From an uncultured Bacteroidales bacterium (lineage in GTDB: Bacteria; Bacteroidota; Bacteroidia; Bacteroidales; WCHB1-69): DNA of 64,000 bases. The stretch covers positions 41,442 to 105,441 of the forward strand of contig OMYJ01000015.1 in assembly GCA_900315245.1 (NCBI GenBank), in the 5' to 3' direction. Of the stretch, positions 31,666 through 61,831 are shown piece after piece. The position numbers and the translations under genes are program-made. The notes under the pieces are model-generated. The model saw only the letters and a program-made list of their open reading frames with translations. It ran no database searches and had not been told where the DNA came from. Numbering within the stretch: the stretch's first letter is position 1; each line of letters starts with the position of its first letter.

Positions 31666-32223
31666 TTACCCCTTCATCGCCAAAAAGGCAGTGGCGTCCT
31701 CCAACAGTTCCTTGTCAGTGAAATATTCCATCTTTGACAATTCTTCCATGTTGTTTTTAATCAGCATACACGCTGTATTATACAAGTCTTTGTGTTGTTC
31801 CCAGAAATCCGCATTTATTTGTAAAACGCTATTAAGCAGGTCTCCGTCGTAAAAATCGCCTGAAACCTTGATGTCGTGCTGAAGTATTTCAAACACTTTT
31901 GGCAGGATGATGTCCAATCCGGTCTTTTGTCCAACTAAATATCGGTAATCTTCCACCGTCCACCGTCGGGCTTGCGTGTGGTACAGGTAATACATGTGCT
32001 GGACGACGGAAGAATCGTCGTAAGGGATTTCGTCTCGCCACTCCTCCTGAAGCAGGTCGGAAAGCGTTTGGGAGAAAAAGTTGCGGTCTTCTTTCAGAAT
32101 GTGCTGAACGTATTCGATGTCGGCATCGGTCACCTCGGAACGTCCAATAGGGACAGGAGATTTGGTTCGCTCGGCGTGAATCTCTTCCGTGACGTATCGA
32201 GGTGTCTTCTTTAGCTTTTTCAT
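31666..32223 (-). CDS. CdiI-like (contact-dependent inhibition immunity) protein with N-terminal extension
   Basis: WTVEDYRYLVGQKTGLDIILP...GDFYDGDLLNSVL....FW matches the recalled CdiI_3 consensus (lt.edlRllIgQ.igl...P..GdfY.GDLL). Confidence 0.65.
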   Translation of the reverse strand: MKKLKKTPRYVTEEIHAERTKSPVPIGRSEVTDADIEYVQHILKEDRNFFSQTLSDLLQEEWRDEIPYDDSSVVQHMYYLYHTQARRWTVEDYRYLVGQKTGLDIILPKVFEILQHDIKVSGDFYDGDLLNSVLQINADFWEQHKDLYNTACMLIKNNMEELSKMEYFTDKELLEDATAFLAMKG

Positions 32224-35931: not shown

Positions 35932-36426
35932 CTACAACAGTTGCATCGCGATTTTCGCGCAGGCCTCTGCGTCGGCCAACGCGTGGTGGTGGTTGGTCAT
36001 CGGGCAGCCGCAAGCCTCGGCCACGGTGTGCAGCTGGTGGTTGGGCAACCGCCGTCCAAAATGACGCCGCGAAGCCCGGCAGGTGCAAAGGAACTGGTAG
36101 TCGGGGTAGTCCATCTGATAGACGCGGAACACGGCCTTGAGGCAACCCTCGTCAAAAGGACTGTTGTGCGCCACGAGGGGCAGTCCTGCGATGAGCGGCT
36201 CGATCTGTCGCCACACCACGGGGAATATGGGTGCATCATCGGTGTCTTCGTGCGAGAGTCCGTGTACCTCCTGGCAGAACCAGGCGTAATAGTCGGGTTC
36301 GGGATGGATGAGCGAGTAGAACGTGTCGGTGATGACGCCGCCGCGCACCACCACCACGCCCACGCTGCAGACGCTGCTGCGCTGCCCGTTGGCGGTTTCG
36401 AAATCTATGGCGGCAAAGTCGGTCAT
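35932..36426 (-). CDS. DEDDh 3'-5' exonuclease (Pol III epsilon-like)
   Basis: IDFETAN, AHNSPFD and HHALADA. Confidence 0.9.
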   Translation of the reverse strand: MTDFAAIDFETANGQRSSVCSVGVVVVRGGVITDTFYSLIHPEPDYYAWFCQEVHGLSHEDTDDAPIFPVVWRQIEPLIAGLPLVAHNSPFDEGCLKAVFRVYQMDYPDYQFLCTCRASRRHFGRRLPNHQLHTVAEACGCPMTNHHHALADAEACAKIAMQLL

Positions 36427-40431: not shown

Positions 40432-40941
40432 TTATTGATTCCCTTTAACAATCCCCGCAATCTTCCCATCCATCCTGTTCAGGAACTCCCCGAACGGTAT
40501 GTTTGGGTCCGCGTGTTCCAGTTTCTCCTGATAATCAACCATATGGAAGTGGTCCACCACGTTCCCGAACCAGGAGTCCTCAATGATGGGAGACTTTTGC
40601 CCAGATGCGGGCGGCAGCACCTTGATGACGTGGACGGTAAGGCCTTTGTGATGGTTTTTGCACCATGTCAGGTTGACTCCGACGGCCAAACATTTCAAAT
40701 ATAATGCCGAGTATCCTCCTTTCGGGGAGATGATCATTTTGCCGGGCGAGTCCCACACCAGCAGCCACACCTCCAACGGCGGGTCGTAGTCGCCGTCCTC
40801 CTGACAGTACAGATATTGCTGCACGAAATCTTGGTCTGACATCCATTCTGTGGTGATGTCATCCGCGAAATGTGCCAGAACGCCTCTTTTACATTGTTCG
40901 GCGTTGAAGCCGATGGGGATGATAATGGTTTTGGTGGTCAT
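40432..40941 (-). CDS. Hypothetical protein
   Basis: ATG 20 nt below the boxed promoter; no family recognised. Confidence 0.6.
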   Translation of the reverse strand: MTTKTIIIPIGFNAEQCKRGVLAHFADDITTEWMSDQDFVQQYLYCQEDGDYDPPLEVWLLVWDSPGKMIISPKGGYSALYLKCLAVGVNLTWCKNHHKGLTVHVIKVLPPASGQKSPIIEDSWFGNVVDHFHMVDYQEKLEHADPNIPFGEFLNRMDGKIAGIVKGNQ

Positions 40942-40960
40942 AATCTTTGTTGTTTTTGAT

Positions 40961-40998
40961 GCGGCAAAGATAACACGGGACTGTGCCAATTCGTGGCA
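40961..40998 (-). promoter_or_regulatory. -7 promoter + palindromic operator (copy 1)
   Basis: Plus strand: GCGGCAAAGATAACACGGGACTG TGCCA ATTCG TGGCA. Confidence 0.75.
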
Positions 40999-41128: not shown

Positions 41129-41371
41129 TCACCCCGCGGAAAACCGCAAGGGGGATTTCCTGCTACCATTGCCGCCATACAAGATGGTAATCGGGGCGAA
41201 ATCCAGAGACTCGAGGCAGTGGTCTGACAGAACGCCAAAGGGGTAATTGCCCAAGACGTCCTTGTGGAAACAGGATTCCTCCAAAGAGGCCGGATCATAA
41301 TGGTAATAGTCAATCAGGACCTTGTCCTCTTGTTCAAAAGTGGGGAATTTGAATGATTCGAGATAGATCAT
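41129..41371 (-). pseudogene. 5' stump of a predicted ABC-type ATPase (COG3910-like), broken at Walker A
   Basis: MIYLESF...YPF..L....LDFAPITILYGGNGS then runs into a repeat element. Confidence 0.65.
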
Positions 41372-41416: not shown

Positions 41417-42031
41417 TTATTCGCAAATCTTGTTTTGACAATTGTCGCAACACTTTTTGTCCGATTCTTCAGGATACGCTTGAGTGATGAGGCAATCGAG
41501 GTAGTGGAACAACTTTTGGATATCTATTTTCCTTGATTCATTTAAACAATTGACAACTTCAAAGTAATTGGTGTTCGCTGATGTGTCTCCACCATTTTCT
41601 TTTTTGATTTTTGGGCTCTCCAAGTTTTCAGTTATCAAGCAGATAGTGTTATTCCCAAAGTACCTGAATAAATGATTTTTATACATCATATCTGTCCACA
41701 ATCCACGATAATACACCTGTCCATATATCTCTATTTTTTCATCTCCCCAAGCTTGAGGAACGCATACTTCTATTTCGCTGATTTTGCTGACGACATTGTT
41801 AAATTTGTTTCTCACGACGTTTCCAACTTGAAATACATACCCGTTATTAGGTTCACTTTCCCTTCTTTCATATGTAGTCAACACATTAGGGCAATTAGGC
41901 CAATCTAATAACCAGACATCATTCGTTTTGATTGATTCTAAAATATTCTTAAGGTCTGTACATAAAACTAAATCTATCTTATTATTAGCCATATAGTTAT
42001 TTTTATTTTCTAAAAATGTTTTCTTCATCAC
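41417..42031 (-). CDS. Hypothetical protein (AT-rich)
   Basis: 204-codon open frame; start may be 41992 (MANNK). Confidence 0.5.
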   Translation of the reverse strand: MMKKTFLENKNNYMANNKIDLVLCTDLKNILESIKTNDVWLLDWPNCPNVLTTYERRESEPNNGYVFQVGNVVRNKFNNVVSKISEIEVCVPQAWGDEKIEIYGQVYYRGLWTDMMYKNHLFRYFGNNTICLITENLESPKIKKENGGDTSANTNYFEVVNCLNESRKIDIQKLFHYLDCLITQAYPEESDKKCCDNCQNKICE

Positions 42032-42064: not shown

Positions 42065-42292
42065 CTACACCGCCCCAAGCTTTGCATTTTCGTCCTTTTC
42101 AATCATCTCAATGCACTTTTCGATGTCGGTGATAATTCCTTTCATAAAGTCGATTTTCTCCTTTTTTGTGTAGCCTTGTACGGTAAATGGAAACTTGGAT
42201 GTGTCAAATTGATATGCTAGGAGTTCGCGGATGGAAAATTCTATTATTTCATCGTTTAAAAAGGCGAATAAATCATCATTAAAGCCATTCAT
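42065..42292 (-). CDS. Small acidic hypothetical protein (paralogue of 51572..51787)
   Basis: EFSIRELL...EKIDFMKGIITDIEKCIE versus EFTIGELI...EKIGFLKELIADIEECIE. Confidence 0.6.
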   Translation of the reverse strand: MNGFNDDLFAFLNDEIIEFSIRELLAYQFDTSKFPFTVQGYTKKEKIDFMKGIITDIEKCIEMIEKDENAKLGAV

Positions 42293-42302
42293 AAATATTT
42301 CT

Positions 42303-42331
42303 CTGGTACGTGTCGGGCGCAACTGTTGGTG
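42303..42331 (-). promoter_or_regulatory. Conserved 29-nt 5' leader (copy 1, promoter-less)
   Basis: Sense CACCAACAGTTGCGCCCGACACGTACCAG, 10 nt above the ATG. Confidence 0.6.
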
Positions 42332-42352: not shown

Positions 42353-43426
42353 CTATGGTAGCTCTTTTCGCATTTCCTCTAATTTGTTGATTCTATTGAG
42401 GATGATGTCGCCAATATCTGTGTGTTTGTGGAGGTAATCACCAAGAAGGCGGCCTACCACGTCGTTAACATAGTCGTGAATGGTCTGCCCTTCGGGCTGC
42501 ATCATTTCAGAACCGAGGCGGGTTTGCGCTCCTGTTTCATAAAGTGGTTCTTGCACCTTGATAGAGATGACGGCAGAAACAGCGTTGCAGATATCGTCTG
42601 TTTCATACCACTTGCCGAAATAAGTGCGGATTGTCATGGCCAATGCGTTGCGGAAGGCATTTTGGTGTGTGCCACCTCGCGGCGTATAATGTTTGTTGAC
42701 AAAAGAATAAAATTCCTCTCCACAATTTCGAGTGGTGTGAGTGAATACAAACTCAAACTTTTCGTCTTGAAGGTGAATCGGCGCGTAAAGCATCTCCTCC
42801 CGTTTCGTCTTATGGCAAAGGAGGTCGTACAAACCGTTCTTGGAAAGGATCTTCTGTCCATTGTAGTTGATGGCGAAACCTTTGTTTAAGCAAGCATAGT
42901 TCCGCAATGTGTTGGCAATGCGCTGTGACAACCACTGGTATTTACCGAGAAGGCTGTCATCGAGTGTGAAGGAGATGGAAGTGCCGGAACGCTGGTTGCT
43001 TACTTCTACGGAGGATTCTCCGATGAGCTTACCGTAGGAAAACTCGACCGTCTTCGTCTTCCCGTCCCGGAAACTCTGTATCTTGAAGTGGCTTGATAGG
43101 GCGTTGGTTAGCATGAGAGCCCAACAACCTTCATTTGGGTTTAAATTTGTCACACGGCACATCAGCTTATCAAATGGCATACCACATCCATAGTCGCGCA
43201 CGTTCACTACATTGTCTTTGATGGTCACATCGATGTTTTGGCTATGTCCCTGTTCGGATTGTTCAACAGAGTTGTTAATTACCGCTTTCAAAAGTTCATG
43301 GATAGCATCATTTCGTGAGTCGCTATCTCCTATTCGCCTGCCAAGGAAAAAACCAGGGCGTGAGCGGACATGCTCATACCAGATTGTCCTGATGTCGTCA
43401 TCATTGTTTTTGTCACGTTTTTCCAT
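42353..43426 (-). CDS. Truncated, degenerate ParE/GyrB N-terminal (GHKL + transducer) homologue
   Basis: EHVRSRPG, VRDYG.G.P, NALS, SFVN..YT..GGTH..AFR and SIKVQEP; ends at RKEL before TOPRIM. Confidence 0.8.
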   Translation of the reverse strand: MEKRDKNNDDDIRTIWYEHVRSRPGFFLGRRIGDSDSRNDAIHELLKAVINNSVEQSEQGHSQNIDVTIKDNVVNVRDYGCGMPFDKLMCRVTNLNPNEGCWALMLTNALSSHFKIQSFRDGKTKTVEFSYGKLIGESSVEVSNQRSGTSISFTLDDSLLGKYQWLSQRIANTLRNYACLNKGFAINYNGQKILSKNGLYDLLCHKTKREEMLYAPIHLQDEKFEFVFTHTTRNCGEEFYSFVNKHYTPRGGTHQNAFRNALAMTIRTYFGKWYETDDICNAVSAVISIKVQEPLYETGAQTRLGSEMMQPEGQTIHDYVNDVVGRLLGDYLHKHTDIGDIILNRINKLEEMRKELP

Positions 43427-43462: not shown

Positions 43463-43500
43463 GCGGCAAAGATAGTGCGTAACTGTGCCGATTCGTGGCA
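43463..43500 (-). promoter_or_regulatory. -7 promoter + palindromic operator (copy 2)
   Basis: Plus strand: GCGGCAAAGATAGTGCGTAACTG TGCCG ATTCG TGGCA. Confidence 0.75.
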
Positions 43501-43606
43501 TACCCAACCCCGACCGATTCAAAGGCCTGTCCATTGGTAGTGAGCAGTGGGATCTTAAAGCGAAAACACACCGTCAGGGGTGCAGGGCCTGGTAGAATGT
43601 AGTTGT

Positions 43607-49927: not shown

Positions 49928-50006
49928 CTGGTACGTGTCGGGCGCAACTGTTGGTGAATACTAAAGTTGCGGCAAAGATAAATCCCGACTGTGCGAGTGC
50001 GTGGCA
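49928..50006 (-). promoter_or_regulatory. 29-nt leader (49928-49956) + -7 promoter/operator (49969-50006; operator copy 4)
   Basis: Plus strand: GCGGCAAAGATAAATCCCGACTG TGCGA GTGCG TGGCA. Confidence 0.7.
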
Positions 50007-51792: not shown

Positions 51793-51871
51793 CTGGTACG
51801 TGTCGGGCGCAACTTTTGGTGAATACTAATGATGCGGCAAAGGTAAATCCCGACTGTGCCAGTGCGTGGCA
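51793..51871 (-). promoter_or_regulatory. 29-nt leader (51793-51821) + -7 promoter/operator (51834-51871; operator copy 5)
   Basis: Plus strand: GCGGCAAAGGTAAATCCCGACTG TGCCA GTGCG TGGCA. Confidence 0.75.
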
Positions 51872-53021: not shown

Positions 53022-53059
53022 GCGGCAAAGATAACACGGGACTGTGCCAATCTGTGGCA
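53022..53059 (-). promoter_or_regulatory. -7 promoter + palindromic operator (copy 7)
   Basis: Plus strand: GCGGCAAAGATAACACGGGACTG TGCCA ATCTG TGGCA. Confidence 0.75.
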
Positions 53060-58855: not shown

Positions 58856-58934
58856 CTGATACGTGTCGGGCGCAACTGTTGGTGAATACTGAAAACGCGG
58901 CAAAGATAAGGCAGGGGTGTGCCAGCGCGTGGCA
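58856..58934 (-). promoter_or_regulatory. 29-nt leader (58856-58884) + -7 promoter/operator (58897-58934; operator copy 8)
   Basis: Plus strand: GCGGCAAAGATAAGGCAGGGGTG TGCCA GCGCG TGGCA. Confidence 0.75.
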
Positions 58935-60808: not shown

Positions 60809-60853
60809 GAAAAATTCTGAATGAAAAACTTTGGCAACATAATTTTTCAACTC

Positions 60854-60887
60854 TGCCATCAACTTTCATACCATTTGCCTATCTTTG
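60854..60887 (+). promoter_or_regulatory. WYL gene promoter with operator half-site
   Basis: TATCTTTG at 60880-60887; TGCCA at 60854, 26 nt upstream, the same offset as in the nine boxed promoters (second half degenerate, TTTCA). Confidence 0.55.
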
Positions 60888-60913
60888 CCGCGTCGATTTT
60901 AAATCCAACAGTT

Positions 60914-61831
60914 ATGACAAAAGAGCTTATAAGAAAGTATATTTGGCTGATAGACACGGTGAACCAAGCAGGATTCGAGGGAATCACGTTCAGTACAATT
61001 CGTGACAAGTGGAAACGCAACGACTTGCTTTCTGGTGGGGAGGACTACCCCAAACGCTCGTTCCACAACCATGTGGCGGCGGTGCACGAGCTGTTCGGCA
61101 TCGAGATTGCCTGTCACAAAAGCACCAATTCCTACTATATCGCCAACAGTGGCGACCTGAAGGACAGCTCTGGTTTCAAAGGGTGGCTCCTCGATGCGCT
61201 GTCGCTCAACAGCCAACTGGAGGAGAGCAGCCAGCTGAAAGACCGCATCCTCCTGGAGGAGATCCCCTCCGGCAAGGAGTTCTTGCCCACCATCCTGGAG
61301 GCGATGCGCGATAATAAAATGCTGACATTCAGCTATAAACCGTTCTGGGTAGAAGATGACTACGTGTCGAATTTCTACCATGTGGAACCCTACGCGCTGA
61401 AGGTCTTCAAACGTCGGTGGTACCTGTTGGGCAAGTACGGCGACAGTCCGCTGAAAGTCTATGCGCTGGATAGGATGCAGGATATCGACATTGAGTTTGA
61501 GAGCTTCAATCTGCCCGCCGACTTCAACGCGGCAGAGTTCTTCGGCACCTGCTTCGGGGTGATGATGACTGAGGAGGAACCGCAGCTGATCAGGCTGAAG
61601 GTGGACGCCTTCCAGTCGAAATACTTGCGCACGCTGCCGTTGCACCCGTCGCAAGAGGAGGTCGAGCGCACGGAGGACTATTCCATCTTCACCTACTTTC
61701 TCCGTCCCACCTTCGACTTCATCCAAGAGTTGCTCTCGCTCGGCATCACCGCCGAGGTGCTATCTCCCAAGACGTTGCGCAACGAGATCGCCCGCATCGG
61801 CAAGACGGTCTGGAAGCACAACGGAAAGTAA
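60914..61831 (+). CDS. WYL-domain transcriptional regulator (wHTH-WYL-WCX)
   Basis: N-terminal wHTH (KYIWLIDTV...RSFHNH...ELFGIEI), VEPYALKVFKRRWYL..., YALDRM and C-terminal LPLHPSQ...LLSLG...EVLSP..LR. Confidence 0.92.
   Translation: MTKELIRKYIWLIDTVNQAGFEGITFSTIRDKWKRNDLLSGGEDYPKRSFHNHVAAVHELFGIEIACHKSTNSYYIANSGDLKDSSGFKGWLLDALSLNSQLEESSQLKDRILLEEIPSGKEFLPTILEAMRDNKMLTFSYKPFWVEDDYVSNFYHVEPYALKVFKRRWYLLGKYGDSPLKVYALDRMQDIDIEFESFNLPADFNAAEFFGTCFGVMMTEEEPQLIRLKVDAFQSKYLRTLPLHPSQEEVERTEDYSIFTYFLRPTFDFIQELLSLGITAEVLSPKTLRNEIARIGKTVWKHNGK

Follow-up and report, generated by a model that had tools for sequence, protein, structure and literature searches.

A degenerate stand-alone ATPase-transducer fragment of topoisomerase IV subunit B, under purifying selection in cassette arrays of gut Bacteroidales, as a possible target mimic

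Why should a bacterium carry, as a separate gene behind a promoter of its own, just the ATPase-transducer half of topoisomerase IV subunit B (ParE), and what could such a protein do? The question is raised by a 64,000-nucleotide (nt) stretch of DNA from an uncultured Bacteroidales bacterium, hereafter the window, in which positions 42353 to 43426 encode a truncated ParE product that we refer to as ParE'. The first-pass annotation had described an intact frame of 357 amino acids (aa) that ends before the TOPRIM domain, and the open reading frame (ORF), the Pfam matches and the alignment all bear this out.

42353..43426, minus strand: ParE' coding sequence, 357 aa plus stop codon, comprising the GHKL and transducer domains and no TOPRIM domain.

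A longer frame that runs up to 43534 is mere read-through of the promoter box; the L004 homologue has the same start Met, located directly after the preceding gene and without a box. Pfam recognizes the transducer domain of ParE' (DNA_gyraseB, 1.2e-18), while HATPase_c is found below its gathering score (3e-5, 24.8 bits) and the TOPRIM domain (PF01751) and the C-terminal tail (PF00986) have no Pfam match in the protein. The NCBIfam GyrB/ParE models reach 94-134 bits with ParE' against cut-offs of 723-900. In the alignment with full-length Bacteroidales ParE, the C-terminal end of ParE' coincides with the end of the last transducer helix. The AlphaFold2 model has a predicted local distance difference test (pLDDT) score of 83.9 and a predicted template modelling score of 0.78, with most of the transducer above 90, and superimposes on the 43-kDa ATPase fragments of GyrB and ParE with template modelling (TM) scores of 0.77-0.84. 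Matches in PHROGs are limited to generic phage topoisomerase II families, the PADLOC models gave no match for ParE' (P0001), and literature searches returned no description of natural stand-alone truncated GyrB/ParE proteins.

The elements on which ATP turnover and dimerization of the B subunit depend are degenerate in ParE' and, to different extents, in its same-length relatives, which together make up a set of nine truncated genes.

43259..43288, minus strand: degenerate N-box KAVINNSVEQ, with Ala in place of the catalytic Glu and the Mg-binding Asn retained.
43181..43195, minus strand: G1 box DYGCG (from DYGRG), with Cys in place of Arg; the Asp that binds adenine is unchanged, as are the Gly residues.
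43115..43138, minus strand: ATP-lid remnant PNEGCWAL, left by a deletion of 13-14 residues in all nine truncated genes; pLDDT <50 at residues 97-100.
42524..42535, minus strand: former QTK loop, now TGAQ; the Q-to-G and T-to-A changes are fixed in all members and the Lys position is variable.

A phmmer alignment to Mycobacterium tuberculosis GyrB (3zkb) places KAVINNSVEQ on EVVDNAVDE and ETGAQTRLG on EGQTKTKLG. The ATP lid, GGKFNSEAFTNSIGQNGVG, is 13-14 residues shorter in ParE', and the transducer QTK loop has changed from ESQTK to ETGAQ in the window's protein and from SQTK to TGAQ/H/K across members. The N-terminal strap has likewise lost its conserved Tyr and Ile, so that strap, lid and QTK loop are degenerate in all nine genes. 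All members retain the adenine-pocket residues N46, D73, G77, P79 and T165 (numbered as in E. coli GyrB); R136 is gone in some. The replaced catalytic Glu, the altered DYGRG motif and the shortened lid had been picked out from the sequence at the first reading and hold in our alignments, whereas the losses of the QTK loop and of the strap residues, as well as the existence of a sister clade that retains the catalytic Glu and DYGRG, had been overlooked. Given the loss of the lid, the QTK loop and the strap residues, together with that of the catalytic Glu in the window's clade, ParE' should neither hydrolyse ATP nor act as a topoisomerase, and an ATP-closed N-gate dimer is probably beyond it.

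A protein search revealed same-length relatives with 94, 86, 82, 82, 65 and 64% identity, followed by a 617-aa ParE with 58%. The nine distinct same-length genes that could be assembled with their DNA share 64-94% identity, a common start Met and a common end (...EELP(L)*), and the lid deletion and the QTK replacement are common to 9/9. They fall into two clades. In clade A, which comprises the genes of the window, L004, L005, L009, L010 and L015, the catalytic Glu (E42), E50 and R76 are gone; clade B (L012, L013 and L016) retains KEVIDN..E and DYGRG. Because clade B keeps the Glu and DYGRG and yet shares the truncation and the losses of lid and QTK loop, these three events appear to have come first and the further decay of the ATP site later.

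The ratio of nonsynonymous to synonymous substitutions (dN/dS, Nei-Gojobori) among the nine genes is 0.19-0.43 at dS values of 0.08-1.25, with bootstrap 95% upper bounds of at most 0.61; over the same columns, full-length ParE has values of 0.01-0.09. The constraint is unevenly distributed, with dN/dS of 0.05-0.32 in the transducer and 0.25-0.48 in the GHKL domain. The mean column conservation of the transducer amounts to 0.89 within ParE' versus 0.78 in ParE, and the substitutions R280C, Q299G, T300A and V263A are fixed in 9/9 genes. The open frame and the identical stop position hold across dS up to about 1.2. A further copy (L014:2892-3967, 96% identical) is broken into 264 and 94 aa by the insertion of two nucleotides (GT) at nt 775, which reflects either an error of assembly or genuine pseudogenisation in one lineage. 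Overall, these patterns show that purifying selection maintains the frame of ParE', and above all its transducer; the gene is not a decaying pseudogene. The selected pseudo-enzyme postulated in the first-pass annotation is thereby upheld: decay had been expected to leave no same-length homologues and a dN/dS near 1, and instead same-length homologues exist, with ratios well below 1 and a frame open over dS >1. The other features that it described in the sequence are present as well.

In maximum-likelihood trees the nine genes constitute one clade (support 99-100) that sits on a long stem and is nested inside Bacteroidales ParE. Its neighbours are the ParE sequences of metagenome-assembled genomes from yak rumen, buffalo and horse gut (L017/L018), from which ParE' is separated by a saturated dS of about 2. 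The sequences show that ParE' originated through a single truncation at the domain boundary before TOPRIM. The host genome (3.05 Mb, 48.8% GC) contains its own GyrB and its own ParE of 611 aa, which is 46% identical to ParE'. Among 401 genomes across the order, only that of the window has the truncated gene; three congeneric genomes are without it. A second run on 151 genomes with a laxer threshold detected no other extra ParE-like paralogue; a second ParE-like match in G053 was rejected as a paralogue, as it is the GyrB of that genome. A scan of 185,579 species representatives added only two carriers, L015 and L016, and searches of IMG/VR and PLSDB for carriage by phages and plasmids yielded no ParE'. 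The monophyly and nesting of the clade, the low identity to the host ParE and the scattered carriers thus mark ParE' as a rare, horizontally acquired accessory gene of animal-gut Bacteroidales.

Since ParE' appears to be enzymatically dead and yet is kept by selection, it probably works by binding something and not by catalysis. We tentatively favour the interpretation that it is a harmless target mimic for a factor that binds the ATPase-transducer region of ParE or GyrB, which we regard as the most credible of the readings considered here and still short of probable. The horizontally acquired cassette gene encodes only the N-terminal portion, GHKL and transducer, of a topoisomerase IV B subunit from the Bacteroidales. 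According to this model, its product would sequester a ligand that would otherwise bind the ATPase-transducer region of the resident ParE or GyrB. The ligand might be a toxin delivered into the cell, a DNA-mimic inhibitor or a protein with which a phage takes over its host, and without its dimerization elements ParE' would not poison the host enzyme. The interpretation is favoured because the strongest constraint falls on the ParE-like transducer surface, and because strap, lid and QTK loop, the clamps onto a full-length B subunit, have been removed, as expected of a ligand binder that spares the host enzyme. It is further favoured because ligands directed at ParE/GyrB exist: protein inhibitors acting on the B-subunit ATPase region include FicT/VbhT, phage Igy and MfpA, which imitates a T-segment on the ATPase domain of GyrB (reviewed in PMC10886550). 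Four observations weigh on the other side. At least one lineage can do without ParE', as the frameshift in L014 implies; the gene is rare, very large collections having yielded only 9 loci; the ATP pocket underwent remodelling between clades, E42, E50 and R76 being lost only in that of the window; and ParE' is only 46% identical to the ParE of its present host, so that it need not mimic a surface specific to that host.

The 25-kb island that contains the gene (about 35.3-60.9 kb of the window) has all its genes on the minus strand, behind a divergent regulator at the array head.

60821..61831, plus strand: divergent WYL+WCX regulator, array head (Pfam WYL 2.4e-10, WCX 5.8e-9; PADLOC WYL 1.9e-27).
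43567..43584, minus strand: terminator-like hairpin that closes the preceding cassette and precedes the ParE' box.
43463..43500, minus strand: putative operator-promoter box of ParE', with palindrome TGCCAC-N4-CGGCAC, N10 and the Bacteroidetes-type -7 element TATCTTTG.
40965..40998, minus strand: next putative operator-promoter box, end of the ParE' transcription unit.

The genome contains about 10 copies of the 34-nt box element, all of them within the island. Its general form is the palindrome TGCCAC-N4-TGGCAC and, after a spacer of 10 nt, the Bacteroidetes-type -7 motif TAnCTTTG. The copy at 43467-43500 is located 40 nt upstream of the ParE' start, which fits the claim of the first-pass annotation that the gene has an operator of its own; the same box stands upstream of ParE' in L005, L009, L010, L014 and L015, and a variant of it in L016. 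Judged from the DNA alone, the presence of the WYL regulator is the one feature that may link ParE' to a damage response. Orthologues of this regulator (57-66% identity) are present in 9/41 genomes of the family. Two more WYL paralogues of the host (C10:294938-295867 and C14:207192-208079), 37% identical to the array regulator, may head other arrays.

The island products include HipA, an RNase T-like exonuclease, a PLD nuclease, an ATPase_2 protein and RtcB, besides two GmrSD-type proteins, two ADP-ribosylglycohydrolases (ARH), two PD-(D/E)XK proteins and an IetA/TRIP13-like AAA ATPase. At every locus ParE' belongs to a co-directional, box-bearing array with defence-type company, namely GmrSD, McrBC, PLD, PD-(D/E)XK, RtcB, ARH and an IetA-like AAA protein, and a shuffled pool of cassettes for RtcB, ARH, PLD, RNase T and small proteins is common to the ParE' loci. 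The GC content is mosaic, at 34-60% for the cassettes, 46% for ParE', 45% for the island overall and 53-55% for its flanks. No known RNA families were detected in the island, and Pfam scans of its main ORFs (35.3-62.3 kb; small ORFs not all scanned) revealed no integrase. A gene for a CdiI_3-type immunity protein of contact-dependent inhibition is located at 31666-32223, just outside the boxed island and beyond a TonB-dependent receptor gene.

Downstream of ParE', the transcription unit continues with a leader and a small acidic protein (SAP).

42303..42331, minus strand: conserved 29-nt leader, core AACAGTTGCGCCCGACACG, which begins 21 nt past the ParE' stop codon.
42065..42292, minus strand: SAP75, a 75-aa acidic protein with an isoelectric point (pI) of 4.5, in frame with ParE' and probably co-transcribed; member of an independent cassette family.
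41417..42031, minus strand: 204-aa protein in the same unit as ParE', before the next box; found beside ParE' only in the close relative L014.
41129..41371, minus strand: 80-aa remnant of an AAA_21-like ATPase gene, an N-terminal stub of a protein that is intact (314 aa) in L014 (4952-5896).

The N-terminus of the AAA_21-like stub recurs after the box at 53026, and a 170-aa ORF (window 40432-40944) matches the C-terminal half of a DnaB_C fusion protein of L015 (12318-13541). In 6/9 loci, representing both clades, the ParE' stop codon is followed within about 20 nt by the leader and an acidic protein of 70-75 aa. The SAP family (70-75 aa, pI about 4.2, motif DIEKCIE) was found at 37 further metagenomic loci (L040-L076), none of them with a ParE-like gene within 3.5 kb. 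The leader is kept in 29 of these loci and the operator-promoter box in 30, usually in the order box, 58 nt, leader. An obligate ParE'-SAP pair was rejected on these grounds, as SAP normally has its own box. With the box of a SAP cassette on one side of ParE' and its leader on the other, the association appears to be a historical one, and the simplest reading is that a parE fragment was captured at this position and may have gained a promoter in this way. Microhomology between parE before TOPRIM and the 29-nt leader was rejected as the capture joint, since it is not significant (shuffle p 0.007-0.35). Copies of the leader (core AGTTGCGCCCGACACG) precede small-protein genes in the window (42303-42331, 49928-49956, 51793-51821 and 58856-58884); the genes behind this leader belong most often to the acidic family, and the element is a candidate for either an RNA element or a translational signal. 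The model of SAP75 consists of a beta-hairpin and a long helix (pLDDT 75) and has no significant match in the PDB.

ParE' is not the only truncated protein of its kind. An exhaustive HMMER search of 1.84 billion representatives revealed many further stand-alone ParE-like proteins of about 350-390 aa in metagenomes (P0122-P0271), which belong to about 30 further representative clusters and share 28-42% identity with ParE'. Their N-terminus is that of ParE and their C-terminus falls no more than about 10 residues from where ParE' stops; most have degenerate QTK loops and N-boxes. Two were confirmed as complete genes on contigs (L036:705-1799 and L037:568-1647), and one has same-length relatives in Prevotellaceae, for which 'ATP-binding protein' is the sole annotation. 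Phylogenetically, 23 of these proteins form a separate long-branched clade and others are placed among full-length ParE, with ParE' nested elsewhere; the separate positions suggest that the truncation of ParE to this fragment either occurred more than once or is an old habit. The gene of P0122 adjoins that of an RNase T-like exonuclease, as in the cassette at 35932-36426 of the window, and four tandem copies of the operator-like palindromic motif (G)GCCACAGCTGTGAC lie in intergenic DNA at L036:1950-2010, downstream of the P0141 gene.

Box-bearing arrays also carry fragments of other replication and segregation proteins.

L016:3392-4375; L016:9042-10241; L014:6951-8138; L004:759-2096; L005:4331-5686; L015:12318-13541: stand-alone DnaE, FtsK and DnaB fragments.

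The DnaE fragment consists of the PHP domain (327 aa, 48-50% identical to the N-terminus of host DnaE). The FtsK fragment (395-399 aa, 44% identity to the host protein) comprises the alpha-beta motor but neither the membrane part nor the gamma part, and in L016 its Walker B motif has changed from DE to NL and the arginine finger is lost. The DnaB C-domain proteins (407-451 aa) are 37% identical to host DnaB. A broader proposal, which we offer as speculative and rather unlikely as it stands, is that WYL-headed arrays of gut and rumen Bacteroidales would be libraries of inactivated, truncated essential proteins (the ParE N-half, DnaE PHP, FtsK motor and DnaB C-domain) that are expressed on alarm as decoys and titrate inhibitors of these machineries delivered by phages or competitors.

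Other functions have to be weighed against target mimicry. The transducer might have been neofunctionalised as a scaffold, an adaptor or sensor that binds DNA or protein and serves either the WYL circuit or the product of another cassette, with no mimicry of ParE. The concentration of constraint on the transducer and its four fixed substitutions would suit such a role, and degenerate GHKL-transducer proteins with structural roles are known, for example the meiotic TopoVIB-like proteins. However, ParE' has no conserved neighbour that could serve as the partner: the genes downstream vary (SAP, RtcB, DUF1835/DUF3658, the PHP fragment), and SAP itself occurs at its 37 other loci with no ParE-like gene nearby. 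We consider a scaffold unlikely, and give a still lower rank to a dominant-negative brake, in which induced ParE' would join the host ParE/GyrB or their DNA substrates, stop topoisomerase IV or gyrase and arrest growth in abortive infection or a damage response. The inducible-looking operator promoter under a WYL-headed array and the presence in the same arrays of dead fragments of oligomeric enzymes (FtsK without Walker B, DnaB_C), a classical poison-subunit design, would agree with a brake. Yet a nucleotide-clamped GHKL dimer requires the strap Tyr/Ile, the ATP lid and the QTK loop, each of which is degenerate throughout the nine genes, and ParE' has no TOPRIM domain or tail for ParC binding and shares only 46% identity with the host ParE. 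The degenerate dimerization elements and the missing TOPRIM and tail argue against a classical brake; of these two mechanisms, both of which the first-pass annotation had put forward, the decoy fits the data somewhat better.

A third function, which appears improbable, would be that of a small-molecule sponge, in which the GHKL pocket, devoid of its lid, would trap natural products that occupy the ATP site (aminocoumarin or cyclothialidine type). The adenine-pocket residues are invariant and loop-deleted GyrB24 constructs still bind inhibitors of this type; moreover, work by del Castillo from 1991 is said to concern a truncated plasmid-borne gyrB that affects coumermycin resistance. Against this, the window's clade has lost the E50-R76 salt bridge that floors the inhibitor site, and some of its members R136 as well; constraint is weaker on the GHKL domain than on the transducer, and the latter would be superfluous for drug binding. 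The least credible reading is a functionless captured fragment that hitch-hikes as a pseudogene of the array. It can draw on the frameshifted L014 copy, on the rarity of the gene and on the obvious remnants that the arrays hold, such as the 80-aa AAA_21 stub and the tail of the DnaB_C fusion (u170). But dN/dS is well below 1 in every pair, frame and stop position are kept over large synonymous distances, and the constraint differs between the GHKL and transducer domains, by which this reading is largely refuted.

Type IIA topoisomerases are major targets of antibiotics and toxins. A selected dead copy of their ATPase half would point to the existence, in gut Bacteroidales, of a ligand directed against this region, be it a natural product, a toxin or a phage protein, and ParE' would be a direct bait for it. 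If true, target-mimic immunity would be a strategy not described for bacteria, with the recurrent truncation of ParE in other lineages as its footprint, and together with the DnaE, FtsK and DnaB fragments ParE' suggests that mimicry of essential proteins may be a general and testable principle of immunity in bacteria. If instead the brake were true, ParE' would represent a new way to switch off topoisomerase IV.

A comparison with known systems reveals partial likenesses. The array resembles WYL-regulated defence loci of the BrxR/CapW type in its divergent WYL+WCX regulator beside defence-type genes and in the palindromic operators at promoters; unlike in those loci, the operator-promoter here recurs before about 10 separate cassettes, and control of the boxes by the WYL protein is putative. 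The recombinase-associated immunity-gene arrays of Bacteroidales termed rAID-1 (Ross et al., bioRxiv 10.1101/471110) have in common with it the co-directional arrangement, repetitive intergenic sequences with at least two downstream genes, mosaic GC content and shuffled cargo. By contrast with the rAID-1 cargo of immunity proteins of type VI secretion systems, that of the island consists mostly of nucleases, ATPases and repair enzymes. The array is not filed under rAID-1, as its head is a WYL regulator and an AAA ATPase with no XerD-like recombinase and its cargo does not keep to the GC content of <=41% set for that class.

FicT/VbhT, MfpA/Qnr and phage Igy exemplify the class of ligands that an N-terminal ParE/GyrB mimic could titrate; none of them is known in the host or its phages, and ParE' differs from these inhibitors and protectors in being a copy of the target. 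The meiotic TopoVIB-like proteins kept the GHKL-transducer scaffold after the loss of ATP motifs, as ParE' did, but belong to family IIB, are eukaryotic and work bound to a Spo11 partner. With the 43-kDa GyrB/ParE ATPase fragments (1EI1, 4URL, 3ZKB, 5J5P), ParE' shares the GHKL and transducer domains, the C-terminal boundary and the fold; these are laboratory constructs, whereas ParE' is the product of a natural gene without the catalytic Glu, ATP lid, QTK loop and strap residues. With respect to the B subunit of type IIA topoisomerases (ParE/GyrB), ParE' is a derivative by descent that lacks every functional hallmark of membership examined. Its direct ancestor by phylogeny is the housekeeping topoisomerase IV subunit B of Bacteroidales (nearest, the 617-aa ParE of L017/L018), with 54-58% identity over the common part; by comparison, ParE' has lost the TOPRIM domain and the C-terminal tail, evolves with a 5-10 fold higher dN/dS, and resides in mobile cassettes alongside the host ParE and GyrB.

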